A stretch of DNA of 64,000 nt from an uncultured bacterium (GTDB lineage Bacteria; Chlamydiota; Chlamydiia; Chlamydiales; Waddliaceae). Location: assembly GCA_964635295.1 (NCBI GenBank), contig CAZWOB010000001.1, positions 47,743 to 111,742 of the forward strand, read 5' to 3'. The notes under the pieces were generated by a model. The model was not told where the DNA came from and searched no databases. It was given only the letters and a program-made list of their open reading frames with translations. A program made the position numbers and the translations under genes. The stretch's first letter is position 1; every line of letters begins with the position of its first letter. Positions 20,012 to 33,322 of this stretch are shown piece by piece.

Positions 20012-20550
20012 TTCATCATTGCCATTGTTTCTTTTTTAACCCATTCAGGCGGCTCAGGATGTGGCGACCAATCCGTTACACCTATAAGAGCTACATCGGT
20101 TTTTCCAAGAAACCATCTTCCATCTTCATGGCGACCCTTATCATAATTCTCACCGTTTGATAAAGGTTTTCCAAAAACCCATACCTCATCGCTATGAAGA
20201 GGAGGGCTTGACTCAGCGTCTATCCAATTAAAACCCTGAACCAGAAACACCCTGGATGCTTCTACTTTTCTATGATAGTCTTTCAAATTATAGAAAGAGG
20301 GATAACCAGATTCATCATCACCATAAAAAACAACATCCCAAAAACCACTCCAGTCAAACTCTTCCAGACTCTGAAGTAAAACAGGAACAGAACCCCATTT
20401 CTTTCTAAATTTAATGAATGTCATGGGAACAGAAATCTCTTTTTCCATGCTATAGTCTGATAACCTCGATGAAACCTCCTGAACCCTTTTCTCGACACCA
20501 CAACCGTCATAATCAAAAATCATTAAAAAACCATGCAAGTAATCACTCAT
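20008..20550 (-). CDS. hypothetical protein with C-terminal DUF551-like domain
   Basis: 180 aa. WIDAESSPPLHSDEVWVFGK...GVTDWSPHPEPPEW matches the DUF551 pattern (W-I-x-x-x-D-x-P ... W-x-P-x-P-x-P-P). Confidence 0.5.
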   Translation of the reverse strand: MSDYLHGFLMIFDYDGCGVEKRVQEVSSRLSDYSMEKEISVPMTFIKFRKKWGSVPVLLQSLEEFDWSGFWDVVFYGDDESGYPSFYNLKDYHRKVEASRVFLVQGFNWIDAESSPPLHSDEVWVFGKPLSNGENYDKGRHEDGRWFLGKTDVALIGVTDWSPHPEPPEWVKKETMAMMK

Positions 20551-21347
20551 ATCCTATTCCTTCGATACCGATCCATTCTGTCTAAATGCTCTTTGAGAGC
20601 TTTATCAGACGTTCCACCAGATATTAACTGCTCAGCCCTTCCAAGGTATCTAAAAGCAGATGCCCCATGAGATGCCCAGTCATGCAACTCTCTTTCCACG
20701 TAGCACTGATTCTTCTCTGACCACTCTTTGCGGTAGTTCTCCAAAGCCTTGATCCCCTGAGCGCATTTATCCTTATCAAACCAGCATCGATCCAGCATCG
20801 ATCGTGCGTAGTTGGTGGCCGGGATGATGTCATTTTCCCTTTCAAGCTTGATCAATTTGATTCCAAGATCCCTGGCAAAGTCTACCAGAGACCGGCCAGT
20901 CTGAAACGACTTTATTCCTGCATCGTGTGGGACATAGTGTTTCCCATAGATGTAGTTTCTTTGCCTAAGGACGGTGATATAATGGGATATGTCCTCAAAA
21001 TTGTTTTCGTAGTAGTCGATTAACCTGATCTCTTTTCCAACCAATTGAAAGAACCAGATGGCCGTAGGGTCACGTCTGCCAAGATCCCAAGCCGTATGCA
21101 CCTCAGATAAACGCTCATACGGCACAGAGCATATACACCCCTCACTGTGAGCTTTAGAGATGCCTTTTCCGTACCATAGGCCGTCATTTGCGACCTCCCA
21201 GCACTCATCAAGTGTGGAGGGGTATTGCGTCTTCATACCATCGCCGAGCGTTGAGGCCTTTTTGATATACCAGTTCTTTTGACCTTGCGAAAGCCTAATG
21301 TCGTGATCTTTGCATAGCTTGTCGAAATAGGCTTGGTAGTCTTTCAT
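20547..21347 (-). CDS. terL: terminase large subunit, C-terminal nuclease half only
   Basis: 266 aa. LSQGQKNWYIKK, QYPSTLDECW, HTAWDLGRRDPTAIWFFQ (first acidic nuclease motif), VPHDAG, HDWASHGASAFRYL. These are characteristic C-terminal TerL blocks. No ATPase motifs are present. Confidence 0.8.
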   Translation of the reverse strand: MKDYQAYFDKLCKDHDIRLSQGQKNWYIKKASTLGDGMKTQYPSTLDECWEVANDGLWYGKGISKAHSEGCICSVPYERLSEVHTAWDLGRRDPTAIWFFQLVGKEIRLIDYYENNFEDISHYITVLRQRNYIYGKHYVPHDAGIKSFQTGRSLVDFARDLGIKLIKLERENDIIPATNYARSMLDRCWFDKDKCAQGIKALENYRKEWSEKNQCYVERELHDWASHGASAFRYLGRAEQLISGGTSDKALKEHLDRMDRYRRNRI

Positions 21348-24817: not shown

Positions 24818-25567
24818 CTAATTTAATGTGTATGTGGATTCCTTCCACCAAGGGAAAAAGAACAGCTTGTAATCCATCTCACCTGGCTCCTCTCCCTTAA
24901 CAGCCTTTTCCTGCGCCTGCTTGCAAATGTCGTAGAAATACCCGCCTCTCCCCTCACTCGTTGACTCGATAGTCACCTGCTGACCTATCGCAACCGTCTC
25001 AAGCGCCCCTTCAATGATCTCTTGCGCTTTTGCTGGGTATTTGGCGCATATCTTTCCAAATTCGCTGATATGAAGCCTCTGGAACGTTCCACCGCGTGGA
25101 GCGGTATCTACCACGTAGCTTGACCCATTTGCCCATCTAAGCATTCGCGTTGAATCCTTGGAAGCTGGGTTTAGCTTGGTTACCCAATCAGGCATCCGCT
25201 CCCAGGCAAACTTGACCTTGTTCTCAAAGATAAGTTCAGCGTTTTCTCTTCTGTCAGCAATAAACGTCGTGTCGATCGGAGTTTCATTGAAGATGCAGTC
25301 ATCGATGTAGTTAATGGCGTAGAATGTAGTCACGCCAAGCTGACGGCTTTTGGGGATGATCTTCAGCGGGTGAGGGTCTTTCAAGAGCTCAATTTGCGCC
25401 CAGTTGGGTTCAAAAAGCACAGGCTTTCCGTCTTTACCCTTTATCCAATAAAGCCCAGACTTCTTTGATAATCGCCACTCTTTATCTAAAAGCTTTGGAT
25501 TATCCTTGGCGTATATCTCAACAACTTTTCTAAAATCTGAAGTCATGAGATGGAACATAAACGACAA
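24818..25567 (-). CDS. terL: terminase large subunit, N-terminal ATPase half only
   Basis: 249 aa. NWAQIELL...IIPKSRQLGVTTF (Walker-A-like), RLHISEFGKI (Walker-B-like), TIESTSEG (coupling motif). Ends in FFFPWWKESTYTLN at the usual ATPase-nuclease linker. Confidence 0.8.
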   Translation of the reverse strand: MSFMFHLMTSDFRKVVEIYAKDNPKLLDKEWRLSKKSGLYWIKGKDGKPVLFEPNWAQIELLKDPHPLKIIPKSRQLGVTTFYAINYIDDCIFNETPIDTTFIADRRENAELIFENKVKFAWERMPDWVTKLNPASKDSTRMLRWANGSSYVVDTAPRGGTFQRLHISEFGKICAKYPAKAQEIIEGALETVAIGQQVTIESTSEGRGGYFYDICKQAQEKAVKGEEPGEMDYKLFFFPWWKESTYTLN

Positions 25568-25643: not shown

Positions 25644-25681
25644 ATAATCAAGATAAACAATAAAACAGAGACTTTAGCTCA

Positions 25682-25942
25682 ATGCCTGAAATCAGCCGAT
25701 TCCTGGGAATTATTATCAGAATGTACTATGTAGACCACCCTCCTAAGCATTTTCACGCACACTACAAAGAGTTTGTTGGTTTAATCTCTATTGAGTCTTG
25801 CGAGATGATTGAGGGAAATCTTCCAAAAAGAGCGCTTAAGTTGGTGCTTGAGTGGGCTTCTATTCACAAAGAAGAATTGTTGAGCAATTGGGAGCTGGCT
25901 GAAAAGCGAAAGCCTCTGAATAAAATTGAACCCTTGGAGTAG
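25682..25942 (+). CDS. DUF4160 family protein
   Basis: 86 aa. MPEISRFLGIIIRMYYVDHPPKHFHAHYKEF is the hallmark N-terminus of this family. Confidence 0.75.
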   Translation: MPEISRFLGIIIRMYYVDHPPKHFHAHYKEFVGLISIESCEMIEGNLPKRALKLVLEWASIHKEELLSNWELAEKRKPLNKIEPLE

Positions 25943-25944
25943 TG

Positions 25945-26199
25945 ATGCATACTGTGAGCAGGTTTTTTTATCTTAAAGATTACAAGGTGCTTTTGGAGTT
26001 TGATAATGCAGAATTTAAGATTGTAGATCTTGAGGAGATCGTGAACCAGGGTGGTGAAGTTTTTTCGTCCCTTAAAGATTTAGAATATTTTAAAACATTA
26101 TCTCTTGATGATCCTGATTACCCTAGCAGTATCTGCTGGCCTAATGGGGCTGATATCTGCCCCGACATTCTCTATGAAATGGGGAGGGATATTAGATGA
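25945..26199 (+). CDS. DUF2442 family protein
   Basis: 84 aa from the ATG at 25945 (the track uses the GTG at 25942). YKVLLEFDNAEFKIVDL ... ICWPNGADICPDILY is the family pattern. This is the usual partner of DUF4160. Confidence 0.65.
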   Translation: MHTVSRFFYLKDYKVLLEFDNAEFKIVDLEEIVNQGGEVFSSLKDLEYFKTLSLDDPDYPSSICWPNGADICPDILYEMGRDIR

Positions 26200-26438
26200 G
26201 TGCTTTTTTTAGTGCTGACGAATTTCATGAAGAAGTGTTTGGTGGTAGACCAAAGGGATCTGTTTGTCTTGCTGGCGCAAGGAAAAGGGAAGATCTTACC
26301 CAGGCACAGCTTGGCGAGATGATCGGCGTATCACAATACAATATTTCAAAGATGGAGAGGGGTCATAGACCTATTGGAAAAGACATCGCTAAGCGTTTGG
26401 CTAAGGTATTTAAGTGTGATTATAGGGTGTTTCTTTGA
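26196..26438 (+). CDS. XRE-family helix-turn-helix protein
   Basis: 80 aa. LTQAQLGEMIGVSQYNISKMERGHRPIGKDIAKRLAKVF. ATGA overlap with the previous gene. Confidence 0.7.
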   Translation: MSAFFSADEFHEEVFGGRPKGSVCLAGARKREDLTQAQLGEMIGVSQYNISKMERGHRPIGKDIAKRLAKVFKCDYRVFL

Positions 26439-27232: not shown

Positions 27233-27536
27233 CTTCTCTTTGCTTTTCTGTTTTGTAGAAAGCCCCATCGATCAGGTTGATGTCGTCTTTGACCTGCTCC
27301 ACCATGTCTTTGGGCTGAATCTTTCCATCGTCGTCGAAATAGTATATTTGCTCAAAGGCTTGAAGCGAGTCAAGGAAAAGCATCTCACAGATAGCCTTGA
27401 AAGACTCTCGATATAGTTTTTTATCCTTCTCAAGACATAGTAAAAAAATCTGCTCAAGACCTGTTGTCAATGTGTCTTTAGCAATATTTAATAGCCTTAC
27501 ATCTTCAATTGAAAATGGATTATCTTTTTTATTCAT
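27222..27536 (-). CDS. hypothetical protein
   Basis: 104-aa acidic ORF with a 4-nt overlap with the DUF1064 gene. Confidence 0.4.
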   Translation of the reverse strand: MNKKDNPFSIEDVRLLNIAKDTLTTGLEQIFLLCLEKDKKLYRESFKAICEMLFLDSLQAFEQIYYFDDDGKIQPKDMVEQVKDDINLIDGAFYKTEKQREDDD

Positions 27537-27856
27537 ACTTTATTTACCACGTTAATTTGGATTGGAAACAGGCTTTCGACCTGTTTTCTTTTCGTTTTTG
27601 AGACAGGCGTGTCAATGCCTTTGACGTCCGTGAACACTACATCGCCGTTTTCCCAGAACTCGATGAAGTCGATCACGTAGCGGATGTTGCCTGGTAGGTG
27701 GAAAGGTGCCTGGCGAAGGAAAAAGATGAGGTCTCCTGCTTCCTCAGCGCGTTTCAGCTTCTGGTAGTAGCGAGCTTCAAGTTTTGAGTCGAAGCGGAAG
27801 GAGTCAATTTCTGTGCGTTTTGCGCGGTATTTGTGTTTGATCGGTTTGAATGCCAT
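27533..27856 (-). CDS. DUF1064 family phage protein (nuclease-fold, replication/recombination module)
   Basis: 107 aa. KYRAKRTEIDSFRFDSKLEARYYQKLK ... YVIDFIEFWENGDVVFTDVKG ... KRKQVE matches the DUF1064 pattern. Confidence 0.65.
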   Translation of the reverse strand: MAFKPIKHKYRAKRTEIDSFRFDSKLEARYYQKLKRAEEAGDLIFFLRQAPFHLPGNIRYVIDFIEFWENGDVVFTDVKGIDTPVSKTKRKQVESLFPIQINVVNKV

Positions 27857-27964: not shown

Positions 27965-28291
27965 TCAGTCTTGGTTTTGATTTGTTGGGATGAATCTTGA
28001 AATAACAACGCTGAAGGATGAAAAAATCAGGGTTTCAATCCATGACCTTGCTGTATCGATGCATTCACTTGAACTTCCCAAGTAGATTTGAAGAATAAAA
28101 ACTAAAATCCAGATGAAGGAGAAAAAAATTGCGAAAAAGAATGCGGCGCCCTGAAGGTCGTCGGCAGTTCCAAACTTCATGAATTTAAAGTTTATGAGGA
28201 AGGATCTCTCGGCAGCATTTTCTCCAGTGTAGTCGTCTTTTTTTTCCGCATCAAGGACATTTCCCGGATCGGGATCTCGAAGTGTTTTCAA
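27965..28291 (-). CDS. small two-TM membrane protein, candidate toxin partner of the Panacea protein (copy 1)
   Basis: 108 aa. Hydrophobic segments GAAFFFAIFFSFIWILVFILQIYLG and IETLIFSSFSVVISRFI. 4-nt overlap with the upstream DUF4065 gene. Confidence 0.5.
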   Translation of the reverse strand: MKTLRDPDPGNVLDAEKKDDYTGENAAERSFLINFKFMKFGTADDLQGAAFFFAIFFSFIWILVFILQIYLGSSSECIDTARSWIETLIFSSFSVVISRFIPTNQNQD

Positions 28292-28755
28292 TGTTCGGTT
28301 CCCAGCATTTTTTCAAAATATTCCTGGATATATTCGTTGGGGATTGTCTGGTTGCGGTAGTGGGTCCCTGATCCGTTCACAATACGATCCCAGGGCCCTC
28401 CACGCTCATGCGTCCAGTTCGATAGCTTTTCTGCTGGAAAATCTGCGTAGTTGTCCCAGATAAACTCCAAAATCTCGCGGATTTTTGGATCGTCAATTTG
28501 CGCATTAAACTTGGGAATTTGCCTGTCAATTTTCTGGGAAACATGCCTCTTGAATGCGTGGTAAATTGAGGGTAAAACTGGACCAAATTTCCAGGCCTCA
28601 AAAAGCTCGTTGACGAGGGGCTTGCCTTGATAAACCAGGCAATAAGCGTGAGCGAGATAAATCAGCTTTTGCATTTTCATGGGTGAAATGCTTTTGTTGC
28701 TCATCGAAGCATGCTTGAGAAAGCAATTGGCAATTGTTTCAGCGCGGTAGCACAT
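28288..28755 (-). CDS. Panacea / DUF4065 (SocA/GepA-like) domain protein (copy 1)
   Basis: 155 aa. ISPMKMQKLIYLAHAYCLVYQGKPLVNELFEAWKFGPVLPSIYHAFK is the hallmark of DUF4065. Confidence 0.75.
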   Translation of the reverse strand: MCYRAETIANCFLKHASMSNKSISPMKMQKLIYLAHAYCLVYQGKPLVNELFEAWKFGPVLPSIYHAFKRHVSQKIDRQIPKFNAQIDDPKIREILEFIWDNYADFPAEKLSNWTHERGGPWDRIVNGSGTHYRNQTIPNEYIQEYFEKMLGTEH

Positions 28756-28763
28756 GGTTCCCC

Positions 28764-29708
28764 TCAGTAACAGCCAGCGTGGAGTTTCGTTCTCTCAACC
28801 GCTTCCATCTTCTCGTCAAGTCGGCGTATAAGCTCTTGTCCTCTCATGAAAAGAGGAATTTCCGTCCCTGGCATGTTGGGGATGATAACAAAGTTTCCGT
28901 TTTCCTGGAATTCATAGAAATTATTTTGCCTCTGCCACTGCCTGAAAACCTCCCTGCCAAACTCAACACCGGGAGGTGTGGCCTCGATGTTCTGTCGGCA
29001 AATCTGGAGAAAAGTTCCCGCGCAATTGGTCATCTCCCTCCCCTGCCTTCGGTATCGGTCGGCTCTTTGCCGAAACGCCTCGATGAAGTTTTCCACTCGA
29101 TCCAACGGATGACTCCTGCAAAGATCCAGAGCTGTCTTTTCGTTGAACGACTCGCCTTTGTGGTTTTTGAGGTTCATGGCCAGGATTTTTTCGTATGCCA
29201 CCCGCTGATTCGGCGTCAAGTTTTCTGAGTTATGAACAATTTTAGAGCAGGGAGCAGCCCTTTCCTGCTTTTTCTTGCTTTCTGAAGATATACCTTTAGG
29301 TATATCTGAAGATTGTAGGTCACTTTTGACCTGCCCGTTGGAGGTGGTCACTTTTGACCTGCCCGCAAATTTTTTGAATTTGTTTTTGTCGATAAAAATT
29401 TTTCTTGATTCTTTCCATCGAAGTTTTCCGTTTTTCTGGTAGGGTGTATTTTCTTGAGTGATGAAGGCATATCCATGGTCAACGAGACTTTTTACCCGTC
29501 TTTGAAAAGTCGATACGGAGCACCCGACAATTTCGGCCAGCTCTTCATTTGAAGCCCAGCAGTAATCTTTCTTTTTGCAGAATACGACCAGGTACGGGTA
29601 AAGATTTTTTGCTCCATGGTTAATTCTCTTATCACGCATTAACTTCATTGGGACTGGCGGAATTGATTCAGGAGCCTTAAGTTTTTGACGATCTGTTGTT
29701 TCGGTCAT
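28764..29708 (-). CDS. replication-initiator-like winged-HTH protein
   Basis: Start set at the ATG at 29708 (MTETTDRQ); the track's 29777 start is TTG. NLYPYLVVFCKKKDYCWASNEELAEIVGCSVSTFQRRVKSLVDHGYAFI is a replisome-organiser-type HTH. Iteron-like repeats lie inside the linker region. Confidence 0.5.
   Translation of the reverse strand: MTETTDRQKLKAPESIPPVPMKLMRDKRINHGAKNLYPYLVVFCKKKDYCWASNEELAEIVGCSVSTFQRRVKSLVDHGYAFITQENTPYQKNGKLRWKESRKIFIDKNKFKKFAGRSKVTTSNGQVKSDLQSSDIPKGISSESKKKQERAAPCSKIVHNSENLTPNQRVAYEKILAMNLKNHKGESFNEKTALDLCRSHPLDRVENFIEAFRQRADRYRRQGREMTNCAGTFLQICRQNIEATPPGVEFGREVFRQWQRQNNFYEFQENGNFVIIPNMPGTEIPLFMRGQELIRRLDEKMEAVERTKLHAGCY
29281..29400. repeat. iteron-like repeats plus AT-rich tract (candidate phage origin)
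   Basis: GGTCACTTTTGACCTGCCCG occurs at 29318-29337 and 29346-29365. It is preceded by TCTGAAGA-TATACC-TTTA-GGTATA-TCTGAAGA (29281-29312) and followed by an A/T-rich run (29366-29400). Confidence 0.55.
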
Positions 29709-29827
29709 CCTTGACCTTTCAGATTTTGGGATTGGAGGGAGCGTGCACGAAAATTTCCGTTTTTTCGTGTTGCACAAATCGCCATAGGCGTGCTATTTTT
29801 TTTCATATCTATAAAGTTATGTTTAGG

Positions 29828-29855: not shown

Positions 29856-30039
29856 ATGCCCTGGGGGGCGAAGTTTCTAAATATTTTCTAAGAGTTGTCT
29901 GTGTGAAGAAAGTGCTGTAAAGCACTCATTAAGAAGGGTTTTAATTCAAAAACCGTGTCTGGGAATGTATGTTATGTTGCATTTACAAACATCCTCAATG
30001 CCTACCAGTCCAAGCGTCCATTGGCTTATCTTCGTCACT

Positions 30040-30100
30040 TCACGGTAAAGGACACGTCGCCGTTTCTCCAGAAGACGATGAAGTCGGTTTTGAAACGATT
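30040..30100 (-). pseudogene. remnant of a second DUF1064 gene
   Basis: The minus strand translates KTDFIVFWRNGDVSFTVK-stop, homologous to VIDFIEFWENGDVVFTDVKG of 27533..27856. The 5' two-thirds of the gene are missing. Confidence 0.6.
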
Positions 30101-30140: not shown

Positions 30141-30473
30141 TTAAAGTGAGTCTTGAGATTGTTTTGTTGGGATGTATCTTGAGATAACCACGCTGAAGGA
30201 TGAAAAAATTAAATTTTCAAGCCATGACCTTGCAGTATCGATGCAGTTGCTTGAAGTTTCGCATTTGAGTTGGAAACAAAAAACTAAAATCCAGATAAAA
30301 GAAAAGAAAATTGCAAAAAAGAATGCAGCACCCTGAAGGTCGTCACGTGTCCCAAACTTCATAAATTTTAAGCTGATAAAGAAAGATCGCTCTGAAGCAT
30401 TGTCTCCTGTGTAGTCGTCTTTTTTTTCTGCATTAATTACATTTTCCGGATCAGGATCTCGAAGCTTTTTCAA
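30141..30473 (-). CDS. small two-TM membrane protein, candidate toxin partner (copy 2)
   Basis: 110 aa, clearly paralogous to 27965..28291 (MKKLRDPDPENVINAEKKDDYTGDNASERSF..., identical core GAAFFFAIFFSFIWILVF). Confidence 0.5.
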   Translation of the reverse strand: MKKLRDPDPENVINAEKKDDYTGDNASERSFFISLKFMKFGTRDDLQGAAFFFAIFFSFIWILVFCFQLKCETSSNCIDTARSWLENLIFSSFSVVISRYIPTKQSQDSL

Positions 30474-30937
30474 TGTTCGGCTCCCAACATCTTTTCAAAA
30501 TACTCCTGGATATATTCGTTTGGAATGGTCTGATTCCGATAATGTGTTCCTGACGCGTTCACAATACGATCCCAGGGTCCTCCGCGTTCATGCGTCCAGT
30601 TTGAGAGTTTTTCTGCTGGAAAATCAGCGTAATTGTCCCAGATAAACTCCAAAATCTTGAGGATTTTTGGATCGTCAATTTGTGCATCAAATTTGGGAAT
30701 TTGCCTGTCAATTTTCTGGGATACGTGCCTCTTGAATGCGTGGTAAATCGAAGGTAAAACTGGCCCAAACTTCCATGCTTCAAAAAGTTCGTTTACAAGG
30801 GGTTTTTTTTGGTAAACGAGGCAATAGGCATGAGCAAGATAAATCAACTTTTGCATTTTCATTGGCGAAATGCTTTTATTGCTCAGTGAAGCAATATTGA
30901 GAAAGCGATTGGCGATTGTTTCAGCCCGGTAGCACAT
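30470..30937 (-). CDS. Panacea / DUF4065 domain protein (copy 2)
   Basis: Start set at MCYRAE (30937) by comparison with copy 1. By hand count, 10 substitutions over 155 aligned residues. Confidence 0.75.
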   Translation of the reverse strand: MCYRAETIANRFLNIASLSNKSISPMKMQKLIYLAHAYCLVYQKKPLVNELFEAWKFGPVLPSIYHAFKRHVSQKIDRQIPKFDAQIDDPKILKILEFIWDNYADFPAEKLSNWTHERGGPWDRIVNASGTHYRNQTIPNEYIQEYFEKMLGAEH

Positions 30938-30961
30938 GGTTCCCCCAGTTACTGCAGGCAT

Positions 30962-31242: not shown

Positions 31243-32376
31243 ATGATCCACAAAATTGCCCTCTCTCTACTGATCCTATGCTCTTTTACCTCCTGCTCCA
31301 ACAAATTGAATGAATTTCCGGTCCAAGGTGAGTTCGAAGGAATTAAAACCGTTTTACAAAACCAGAACTGCGTAAACGTCGTTATGATCCATGGGATGGG
31401 GGGCTTTTCCGAAGGCGATCCTCAAACGCTGAAATGCGCCGTTGTCAACTGCCTGCGCTTGCGCAAAACAGCACCCGACTGCGTTAGAGAAGTGATTGGA
31501 GAGCTCTCAGGTCAACCCTATTACTATGGAAATTTAAAACGAGAAGAATACAGAGATCCCTGCTCCTCAAAAACTGTGCGTTTTTACACCATCGATTGGC
31601 ATCCGACCGTTGACACACAGAAACAGCGATTGATCGAAATGGACAAACCGATGATCACATGCCGGGAAAAATCGATCCAGACTCTTAAAGAATCTGTGAT
31701 CAACAATACAACCGCCGATACTTTCCTGTACTTTTCTTCATTCCGATCTGAAATGGAGCATCCGATCATCCAATCGATCCGCTGGATCGTTGAAGACTCC
31801 TGCAATGAATCAGAAACGGAAAATCTTGTCGTCGGCTACAGCATGGGCGGCAATCTTTTGATCAATTCTCTTATCTCCATGCTATACAATAAGACTGATG
31901 AATCAAATACCAAGATCGCAAAAACATTTATCGACGATACAGCTGCCGTATATTATCTCTCAAATGGCTTCCCTCTTGCGGAACTGGTCGAAGACCATCC
32001 TGAAAAGCAATATGACTATGACGATGACCAGCACTGCGAGCTCGCCCCCGATACAAGAAATTTACAGGAAGACGTCTGGCACTGGAATAAATCTCCATTA
32101 GGCTTGTTCGTCAACGAAAAAAGGAAGAACTCCCCCAATTTTCAAATCGTTTCTTTCAACGATCCCAATGACCCCTTCAGCTACAATGCCTCAAAATACC
32201 CTGTCCCCAACGGAAGCAACACCCTTAACGCATTTTTAAATGAAAACGTGCGCAATGTTCAAAGAGCAACATTGGGCAATGTTGACCCTGCGGAAGCACA
32301 TACCGGTTATGGGAAAAACCCAAAGGTGATCGGACTTATCATTAATGGACTGCGTTCTCGAAACGTTTGTTATTAA
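31243..32376 (+). CDS. lipoprotein alpha/beta-hydrolase (lipase/esterase-like)
   Basis: 377 aa. Signal peptide plus lipobox (LLILCSFTSC). VVMIHGMGG (oxyanion HG), VVGYSMGG (GxSxG nucleophile elbow), late NDPNDP and AHTGY as candidate Asp and His. Confidence 0.6.
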   Translation: MIHKIALSLLILCSFTSCSNKLNEFPVQGEFEGIKTVLQNQNCVNVVMIHGMGGFSEGDPQTLKCAVVNCLRLRKTAPDCVREVIGELSGQPYYYGNLKREEYRDPCSSKTVRFYTIDWHPTVDTQKQRLIEMDKPMITCREKSIQTLKESVINNTTADTFLYFSSFRSEMEHPIIQSIRWIVEDSCNESETENLVVGYSMGGNLLINSLISMLYNKTDESNTKIAKTFIDDTAAVYYLSNGFPLAELVEDHPEKQYDYDDDQHCELAPDTRNLQEDVWHWNKSPLGLFVNEKRKNSPNFQIVSFNDPNDPFSYNASKYPVPNGSNTLNAFLNENVRNVQRATLGNVDPAEAHTGYGKNPKVIGLIINGLRSRNVCY

Positions 32377-32497
32377 TACAGGTCTTTGCGCCAATTCCAC
32401 ATTTATCGAATATAGGGTGGAAATCCCCCTATTTATACGGTATTTTAATATTTATTTACCTTATAAAATATTAATAAATAAAATACATGTAAATAAA

Positions 32498-33322
32498 ATG
32501 AATATAAAAAACAGTTGCTTAAGTTATTTTAACGGTTTAAATAATTTATTTTCTAACACAAAAACTTATAAAGATCGTTTAATCTGTAGTTTAAAGATAA
32601 TTTCTTTAGCCACGATCATTATTCCATTATTTGTAGGAATTTCTTATTCGATTTGTATAGGGATAGAGCGCATAAAAGGACGAGTGAAAGTTATCCAGCC
32701 TGATAACAATGGTAATGAACACGCCGAACAAGCAAGAAGAGAAACGTCGGATAACAACAATCCTGTGAGACCAACAGCACAGAGCGTATCCAGCGGTAAC
32801 ACCACTAATACCGTCGAACGTGTAAGAAGACAAACATTTCAGAATACCACCAATATTGGATATGGGAATCTTAGCAAGGCAGAACTAGAGAGGAAATTTT
32901 TCCAGGAGGTTAGATCTGGAAATATCAATGAAGTCGGGAAATTACTACGGCACAACAAAGACCTTGTTCAATGTCGCGATCACAATGGGATGAACGCCCT
33001 TTTTTATGCTGAGACCTCTGAAATGCTTGAATTTCTATTAAAGAGAAATGTTAACCCAAACCAAAAAGCGGATTATGGTTGTAATGGTAAGACCCCTCTT
33101 ATCCATTTTCGCACAAATACAGCATTTATTAAACTCCTATTGAGTCATGGAGCTGATAGAGACATAGCAGATAATAATGGATGGACTGCATTAAGATGGG
33201 CGAGGCGCGATGCAGCTTGGGGAGGTGATCGTTCTATTCGAGATTATGGCCAAAATAATGATGGAGAAGAGTGTCACGAAAATATCAGGCTTCTCAAGCA
33301 CTTTTATCCAGAGACGGTGTAG
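32498..33322 (+). CDS. membrane-anchored ankyrin-repeat protein
   Basis: Start moved to the ATG at 32498 (MNIKNS), because the track start at 32345 overlaps the upstream gene and crosses an AT-rich spacer. TM segment LKIISLATIIIPLFVGISYSICIGI. ANK repeats NGMNALFYA...LLKRNVNPN, GKTPLIH...LLLSHGADRD, NGWTALRWA. Confidence 0.65.
   Translation: MNIKNSCLSYFNGLNNLFSNTKTYKDRLICSLKIISLATIIIPLFVGISYSICIGIERIKGRVKVIQPDNNGNEHAEQARRETSDNNNPVRPTAQSVSSGNTTNTVERVRRQTFQNTTNIGYGNLSKAELERKFFQEVRSGNINEVGKLLRHNKDLVQCRDHNGMNALFYAETSEMLEFLLKRNVNPNQKADYGCNGKTPLIHFRTNTAFIKLLLSHGADRDIADNNGWTALRWARRDAAWGGDRSIRDYGQNNDGEECHENIRLLKHFYPETV

Follow-up and report, generated by a model that had tools for sequence, protein, structure and literature searches.

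A Waddlia-like chlamydia probably carries, among the replication genes of a P22-like prophage, a type II toxin-antitoxin cassette of the PanA-PanT kind in two diverged copies. Each copy consists of panA, coding for a standalone Panacea (DUF4065) protein as the putative antitoxin, and panT, coding for a small protein that would be a membrane-acting toxin. Both panA and panT are real genes under purifying selection. PanA pairs with dozens of unrelated toxins, of which, to our knowledge, just three membrane PanTs have been validated; we also know of little exploration of toxin-antitoxin and phage-defense biology in the Chlamydiota. Systems of the PanAT kind are themselves already known, and what sets this member apart is the defined family of putative toxins, the duplicated arrangement and the unusual host.

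The duplicated cassette and its Panacea protein

The analyzed stretch of 64,000 nucleotides (the window) comes from a metagenome contig, ENA ERZ27256770. Its CTP synthase falls into one cluster (at 90 % or more) with the Waddlia chondrophila enzyme, and the closest named homologue of PanA is from Candidatus Anoxychlamydiales, which marks the host as Waddlia-like and a member of the Chlamydiota. The prophage occupies the minus strand at about positions 1-31000 of the window and is recognizable by its P22-like portal, its major head protein and pieces of the terminase. In the direction of transcription, panA-B and panT-B are followed by the relic of a DUF1064 gene, the replication initiator, panA-A, panT-A, a DUF1064 gene and the packaging and structural genes (Table 1). 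The original prediction, made for copy A, had located the pair in the phage early region, and this is borne out by its flanks, with the replication initiator on one side and the DUF1064 gene on the other, and by its position upstream of the P22-like portal and capsid genes. Because just 8 nt separate the stop of the replication initiator from the start of panA-A downstream, these two genes are probably co-transcribed; no promoter-like or terminator-like site was found between them on the minus strand, and the promoter scan did no better than shuffles.

Table 1. Features of the two cassettes and of the adjoining phage genes, in window coordinates.
Feature	Position	Strand	Basis
DUF1064 / Holliday-junction-resolvase-like gene downstream of cassette A	27533..27856	-	DUF1064 E 4e-17; phrog_190 E 1.7e-24
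panT-A, small membrane protein of 108 aa, putative toxin, TTG start overlapping the panA stop	27965..28291	-	ORF, omega, family, AF2
PanT-A TM helix 2, residues 83-99, with small-xxx-small motif	27995..28045	-	hydropathy, AF2, family
PanT-A TM helix 1, residues 48-70	28082..28150	-	hydropathy, family mean, AF2
PanT-A conserved cytoplasmic juxtamembrane motif, residues 20-47 (DYTG..A..R..IN...K.GT.D..QGAA), putative PanA docking site	28151..28234	-	conservation, AF2
TTGA stop/start overlap of panA-A and panT-A, 4 nt	28288..28291	-	junction read; same TTGA in copy B
panA-A, standalone Panacea (DUF4065) protein of 155 aa, putative antitoxin	28288..28755	-	Pfam, PHROG, AF2, omega
phage replication-initiator gene between the cassettes	28764..29777	-	Pfam HTH_36 E 1.7e-11; PHROG replication initiation / DnaD-like
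DUF1064 gene relic (DFIVFWRNGDVSFTVK) downstream of copy B	30038..30086	-	direct repeat D3 at 85 %, alignment and translation
panT-B, paralogous small membrane protein of 110 aa, same TTGA junction	30141..30473	-	identity, dS, omega
panA-B, paralogous Panacea protein of 155 aa from the ATG at 30937	30470..30937	-	Pfam, identity, dS

In Pfam, Panacea is the sole domain detected in PanA-A, which matches PF13274 (SocA_Panacea) with an E-value of 5.7e-19 and 69.5 bits against a gathering score of 25.7; it also matches phrog_1281 in PHROGs with an E-value of 2.3e-40. The AF2 model built from an alignment of 23 homologues has a pLDDT of 90.7 and is composed of seven helices and a β-hairpin at residues 52-60, which is the Panacea architecture described by Ernits et al. 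2023 (PMC10440598). The hairpin bears the G58-P59-V60 motif, and W55, G58, P59, V60 and H116 are invariant in the 22-23 aligned relatives. Neither Foldseek with the PanA model nor PDB sequence searches found a solved structure resembling Panacea. Comparison of panA-A with panA-B gives an omega of 0.04, indicative of purifying selection. The earlier reading of a 155-aa DUF4065 protein overlapping a 108-aa ORF by 4 nt is upheld by the ORF list, the junction as read and the PF13274 match. On the minus strand, this junction reads CAT-TGA in one frame and TTG-AAA in the other, and the TTG start of panT-A is preceded by a weak Shine-Dalgarno. The overlap suggests that translation of panA and panT may be coupled, with PanA being made first. 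In L006, a close relative, the junction has no ATG, GTG or TTG start.

The second copy (30141-30961), of which the original prediction makes no mention, lies 2.2 kb from copy A. Its Panacea protein matches PF13274 with an E-value of 1e-17 and 65.5 bits and is 94 % identical to PanA-A in amino acid sequence, with a dS of 0.86, and PanT-B is 79 % identical to PanT-A, with a dS of 0.69; judged by these dS values, the two copies are old. The similarity between them is confined to the two genes, the flanks being about 25 % identical, as random sequences are. Because a DUF1064 relic follows copy B and the order panA-panT-DUF1064 recurs in the related contig L006, the block that was duplicated or recombined is suggested to have comprised all three genes. 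The pair panA-panT itself moves as a two-gene unit. An upstream ATG at 30961 would extend panA-B to 163 aa, while the gene caller chose the form of 155 aa.

The small membrane protein and its family

PanT-A has a charged N-terminus and two hydrophobic stretches, the first strongly so (residues 48-70, Kyte-Doolittle 19-mer up to 2.79) and the second more weakly (residues 83-100, about 1.3). Its AF2 model, from an alignment of 47 family members, has a mean pLDDT of 81 and places helices at residues 45-71 and 76-100, preceded by a disordered region (residues 1-30) and a β-hairpin with strands at 31-34 and 39-42. Hydropathy and model both accord with the predicted charged N-terminus and two hydrophobic helices, the second of which is convincing only at the level of the family. 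Between panT-A and panT-B the omega is 0.18, and over the first 37 codons it is 0.14, compared to 1.6 and 2.0 in the two shifted frames, so the N-terminal part of panT from the TTG is coding. A chance ORF in place of panT is ruled out by dN/dS and synteny. The small protein had not been recognized as a characterized PanT, and this too stands: it has no family-library match in Pfam, PHROGs, NCBIfam or PADLOC, and no detectable homology to the T3 or T12 representatives of the published PanT clusters. Furthermore, tblastn found no PanT match in phages or plasmids, a word-index protein search returned nothing beyond the two window paralogues, and Foldseek with the PanT model recovered generic helical hairpins, none at E<=0.001.

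When both paralogues served as queries, an exhaustive HMMER search uncovered 33 further representatives of 79-129 aa, and a profile search for the family gave 36 clusters; its members are about 90-130 aa long. One repetitive 579-aa match in the HMMER search was taken as spurious. None of the small proteins of the family has an NCBIfam match at E<=1. They share the motif D-Y-T-G..A..R-x-l-x-I-N-L-G-f-x-K-Y-G-T-x-D..Q-G-A-A, in which the positions equivalent to D20, T22, R29, N34, G41, T42, D44, A49 and A50 are either invariant or conserved to at least 89 % among 47 PanT sequences. The motif is followed by a 23-residue TM helix with a mean hydropathy of 2.62 and essentially no charges in these 47 sequences, a short acidic loop, and a second helix ending in G-V-A-I-G-R with a mean Kyte-Doolittle value of 1.57. 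This second helix contains a GxxxG motif in 45 of the 47 sequences; both window copies instead have SxxxS (SVVIS in PanT-A) where those 45 relatives have GVAIG. Since the charge distribution of the family obeys the positive-inside rule, the protein is predicted to be an N-in/C-in hairpin whose conserved motif faces the cytoplasm.

A small phage-encoded protein with two TM helices might also be a phage lysis or membrane protein, of the class II holin or spanin-like type, in which case its adjacency to PanA would be incidental operon packing. Two relatives do show weak, non-significant holin-like matches in Pfam (E 0.06-0.11). However, no holin family is significant in Pfam or PHROGs, the gene lies in the replication module and not beside an endolysin, and the same pair is found at non-phage chromosomal sites in genomes of 33-70 % GC, but in just two of the 80 best IMG/VR PanA loci. 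This origin of the small protein is therefore very improbable, and a holin identity was rejected on synteny.

Linkage to Panacea genes and relationship to published PanT clusters

The panA-panT pair is strictly linked across distant bacteria. In all seven independent contexts reached via the small protein, a Panacea gene lies immediately upstream on the same strand. These PanT-anchored contexts, made up of five distant clusters and two more, lie on contigs of 33-70 % GC and extend from chlamydiae to Alphaproteobacteria. In the five loci measured and the window, the spacings between the two genes are -29, -23, -11, -4, +5 and +58, with -23, -29 and +5 belonging to L009, L017 and L011. The surroundings are unrelated: a type I R-M system in an Anoxychlamydiales MAG (L007), a TIR gene and a terminase (L009), pheST and lysA-like housekeeping genes, phasin genes, and an IS1595 element. 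When approached from the other side, by searching one genome for each GTDB species with a PanA alignment, the PanT family is found downstream of six of the seven closest PanAs, the carriers being members of the Coxiellaceae, Leisingera, Thermodesulfobacteriota, Hyphomicrobiales and Acetobacteraceae and a gammaproteobacterium. Nearly all of the other 70-odd GTDB PanA loci code for a downstream protein of 105-175 aa whose N-terminus is charged and which has one or two TM helices. The downstream partners of this PanA clade fall into different sequence families. Partners other than the PanT family also accompany PanA in plasmid matches from Rhizobium, Microvirga, Azospirillum and Salinibacter and in Rhodobacter phage RC1 and a Halomonas phage. 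The candidate PanA-PanT pairing that had been proposed is supported by the standalone Panacea protein with its GPV motif, the A-then-T order, the overlapping genes and the retention of the pairing in unrelated contexts.

The same contexts bear on a reading in which there is no toxin. Ernits et al. 2023 proposed that Panacea is primarily a sensor (PMC10440598), and the small protein could be its non-toxic membrane anchor or effector partner in a membrane-associated phage-defense or superinfection-exclusion complex that acts only on infection. The cassette is prophage-borne, some loci are near defense genes, namely the type I R-M system of L007 and the TIR gene of L009, and several of the tested PanTs were not toxic in E. 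coli (PMC8832971). On the other hand, many loci of the family are located among housekeeping genes outside any defense context, PADLOC gives no match, and the strict two-gene mobility, the gene overlap and the decay of the small gene while PanA is kept are the behavior of a toxin-antitoxin module. We consider such a sensor complex unlikely.

Three of the published clusters offer the nearest comparisons for a membrane-acting toxin. The charged N-terminus and the two TM helices of PanT-A constitute the architecture of the validated pore-forming PanTs of T3 and T12 (PMC8832971), and the gene order, with Panacea first and the membrane protein second, is confirmed as originally described and matches the ‘A|T’ order of the published membrane PanT clusters in Dataset S1 of Kurata 2022 (PMC8832971). 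T3, typified by the E. coli STEC O31 PanA-PanT (PMC8832971), likewise has a standalone Panacea antitoxin, with the antitoxin gene first, and is one of the partner families of this PanA clade (42 non-redundant sequences). Its PanAs are close relatives, 33-40 % identical, and it is often prophage-borne, as in the PanA/PanT annotated in Escherichia phage PhiR47_1 and in 30 of the 80 best IMG/VR PanA loci; the T3 list also includes Larkinella soli and L. rosea, at an identical spacing. The T3 toxins differ in being longer (120-180 aa) and in lacking both the DYTG...KYGT.D..QGAA motif and the GVAIGR helix. Against the E. coli PanT and the 42-sequence T3 profile, the PanT family scores an hhalign probability of 0.6-0.9 %, and this profile recognizes the PanT annotated in phage PhiR47_1 at 94.7 %. 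T12, or NetFlax D11, the cluster of the Bartonella apis/choladocola PanT, is similar in toxin size (about 110-115 aa), charged N-terminus, TM helices and overlapping A|T genes. The single T12 sequence compared, D11S_2262 of Aggregatibacter phage S1249, gave an hhalign probability of 0.4-1.5 % with the PanT family. By eye, a third partner family of the PanA clade resembles this T12 member.

The HMM comparison with published PanT families that the original prediction had put forward thus finds no detectable homology to T3 or T12, and gives for T52 a probability of 76 % and an E-value of 2.2e-5 over 68 columns at about 16 % identity. T52, a predicted cluster exemplified by Pseudomonas gingeri WP_017127004.1, is the second partner family of this PanA clade (nine sequences, with a spacing of -1 in P. 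gingeri) and shares with the PanT family its size, PanA clade and gene order. In the alignment, INLGF.KYG falls on QNLG.LGKFFG and the second helix falls in register on SAL.FIFGA; T52 has neither the DYTG and QGAA elements nor the GxxxG motif. A shared TM composition is not enough to explain the score, because the comparisons of T3 with T52 and of T3 with the PanT family score <=3 %. From these alignments, the PanT family is a probable, though unproven, remote homologue of T52. As homology to the validated T3 or T12 toxins is not detectable, toxicity is argued from architecture and synteny only.

SocAB of Caulobacter crescentus, a type VI system with SocB in cluster T10, presents a different kind of relative, since SocB is reported to be a clamp-binding replication inhibitor that is degraded by ClpXP via SocA. 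It has in common with the window pair a Panacea antitoxin, the A|T order, overlapping genes and a small toxin. Were the small-protein family to be T10, its motif would target a machine such as the β sliding clamp, and PanA would be mainly a proteolytic adaptor (for ClpXP or FtsH) and not a stoichiometric inhibitor. Taxonomic range and gene spacing are the points in its favor: T10 is mostly alphaproteobacterial, including Leisingera, has the A|T order and shows overlaps of -23, -29 and +5, and the PanT family, whose range overlaps that of T10, occurs in Leisingera, Hyphomicrobiales, Acetobacteraceae and Methylobacterium with the same three spacings (L009, L017 and L011). Moreover, the cassette adjoins a phage replication initiator, and SocA_antitoxin (NF047745) is the best NCBIfam match of PanA-A. 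This match, however, reaches 118.9 bits against an equivalog cut-off of 190, the related PanAs score 72-121 bits, and the linked alphaproteobacterial ones are lower, at 72-95 bits. The small proteins themselves have no counterpart in NCBIfam at the threshold given above, and long overlaps such as -23 occur in T3 too. The hydrophobicity of TM1 equals that of a genuine membrane span, which is a poor fit with a soluble clamp binder; PanT-A is predicted to be an integral membrane hairpin. In the pairs tested by Kurata, neutralization by PanA also required neither ClpXP nor Lon (PMC8832971). Homology of the PanT family to the SocB family, compared by taxonomic range and gene spacing, is a possibility that we do not favor, and a SocB-like mechanism is less likely than that; the full type VI reading, with PanA as a proteolytic adaptor, appears rather unlikely.

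A further, quite doubtful idea is that the PanT family represents the membrane-embedded face, or a sister, of the SocB cluster T10. Its cytoplasmic β-hairpin motif (R..INLGF.KYGT.D) would then be a membrane-tethered docking peptide for the replication machinery or another core machine, and the two insulated copies flanking the phage replication initiator would couple the arrest of host or competitor replication to the early program. If true, this would connect two classes of Panacea-controlled toxins, the replication inhibitors and the membrane disruptors, and would add the first description of such a system from a tailed prophage in the Chlamydiota.

Proposed action, decay and distribution of the cassette

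Returning to the type II cassette with a membrane-acting toxin, PanA would be translated just ahead of PanT from the overlapping TTGA junction, and PanT would enter the inner membrane as a helical hairpin in the N-in/C-in orientation. Its sequence suggests that it could oligomerize via the small-xxx-small motif of helix 2. By analogy with the validated membrane PanTs, it would dissipate the membrane potential: the E. coli and B. apis proteins depolarize and permeabilize the membrane, and the tested PanAs bind their toxins (PMC8832971), although eight of the PanTs tested by Kurata 2022 were not toxic in E. coli (PMC8832971). In B. choladocola, Panacea touches the toxin at its unstructured N-terminal region and at a short helix that immediately precedes the TM region, and the substitutions Y56A and H120E abolish neutralization (PMC10440598). 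By analogy, PanA may neutralize PanT through direct binding of the cytoplasmic motif at residues 20-47, which adjoins helix 1, and the PanA positions equivalent to Y56 and H120 would be around W55/F57 and H116. As to the role of the cassette, we can only speculate that it stabilizes the prophage or that, as a switch released by titration or degradation of PanA, it brings about abortive infection or superinfection exclusion.

A hint of toxicity comes from five related loci in which an interrupted panT stands beside a full-length panA. In L024, an in-frame stop separates the two helices, L026, L028 and L156 have frameshifts, and in L040 an IS3-family element is inserted after the DYT motif. Loss of panT where panA stays whole is the pattern expected of a toxin gene, in a sample that is biased in this respect because the five loci were retrieved by PanA similarity. 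Some of the frameshifts may be assembly errors.

The family defined here adds a further, widely distributed group of membrane proteins to those linked to PanA, and its sharply conserved cytoplasmic motif offers a ready target for mutating the interface between PanA and PanT. At least four look-alike families of hairpin toxins, established or putative (the PanT family, T3, T52 and the T12-like family), are partners of the closest PanA clade, which makes this clade a good system for studying partner swapping. In the window, a tailed prophage of a Waddlia-like chlamydia harbors the cassette twice, and if PanT is toxic, the two paralogous pairs, with their 94 % identical PanAs and 79 % identical PanTs, would be a natural test of cross-neutralization and insulation. 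No RNA run contains the locus; the prophage is present in DNA runs from sediment and seawater, and the same prophage, with both cassettes identical, is found in four other assemblies.

A second cassette copy and the fate of panT in relatives

The prophage carries a second panA-panT cassette (copy B), which is whole and diverged and lies on the far side of the replication-initiator gene from copy A. The putative antitoxins of the two copies, both Panacea (DUF4065) proteins, share 94% amino acid identity, and the putative toxins, both small two-helix membrane proteins, share 79%, with a dS of about 0.7-0.9 between the cassettes. The two copies offer a ready-made pair for cross-neutralization comparison.

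Across the related GTDB loci (L022-L101), members of the nearest PanA clade are almost always followed by a small protein combining a charged N-terminus with a transmembrane hairpin. These hairpin proteins fall into at least four sequence families: that of the window panT, and the T3, T52 and T12-like families, named after the PanT toxin clusters of Kurata et al. (2022). All of these may belong to a single, very divergent superfamily of hairpin toxins.

Several relatives show disruption of the panT frame. In a Pseudomonadales MAG (locus L040), an intact panA precedes a panT homolog interrupted by an IS3-family element; panT has an in-frame stop in L024 and is frameshifted in L026, L028 and L156. 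A different situation is seen in a close relative from a Logan contig (L006), where the panT reading frame runs without interruption from the stop codon of panA and the junction reads CTGA, as against the TTGA overlap of copies A and B. No ATG, GTG or TTG occurs in this frame before codon 35; its panT may use a CTG or ATT start, depend on re-initiated translation, or represent decaying expression.

Features of the window and of related loci
Feature	Location	Strand	Remarks
panA-panT cassette, copy B	30141-30961	-	
Two perfect 20-nt direct repeats, GGTCACTTTTGACCTGCCCG	29318-29337 and 29346-29365		28 nt apart, within the replication-initiator gene
DUF4160, DUF2442 and HTH_3 (Xre/cI-like) regulator genes	25681-26438	+	overlapping genes
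377-aa protein and 325-aa ankyrin-repeat protein	31243-33322	+	prophage border, immediately past copy B
IS3-family element (orfA and 380-aa transposase)	L040:2958-4703		OZ242357.1
Cassette close relative	L006:880-1228		SRR31655988; PanA 82% identical

The prophage, its host and its border

The tailed prophage that occupies about 1-31000 encodes a P22-like portal; to our knowledge, there are few reports of tailed prophages in Chlamydiota. Genes of the host side (33399-64000) point to a Waddlia-like chlamydia, the CTP synthase among them sharing 90% or more identity with its W. chondrophila counterpart. No integrase was found among the scanned genes. At the border, the 377-aa protein, which has no family match, and its ankyrin-repeat neighbor may or may not belong to the phage; bacteria with an intracellular lifestyle typically carry ankyrin proteins.

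Other modules within the prophage

The direct repeats resemble iterons, which would place an origin inside the initiator gene, as in lambda O. Elsewhere, phrog_2472 matches two separate ORFs on the minus strand: its positions 9-55 correspond to the C-terminal end of 24818-25567, which also matches the terminase large subunit, and its positions 67-307 to 20547-21347. These seem to be parts of one interrupted gene, and the roughly 3.5 kb of small ORFs separating them may represent an intron-like island or the insertion of a mobile element. Also within the prophage, on the strand opposite to its other genes described here, the three-gene DUF4160-DUF2442-HTH_3 unit may be a further small moron, a toxin-antitoxin-like module or the phage repressor region.
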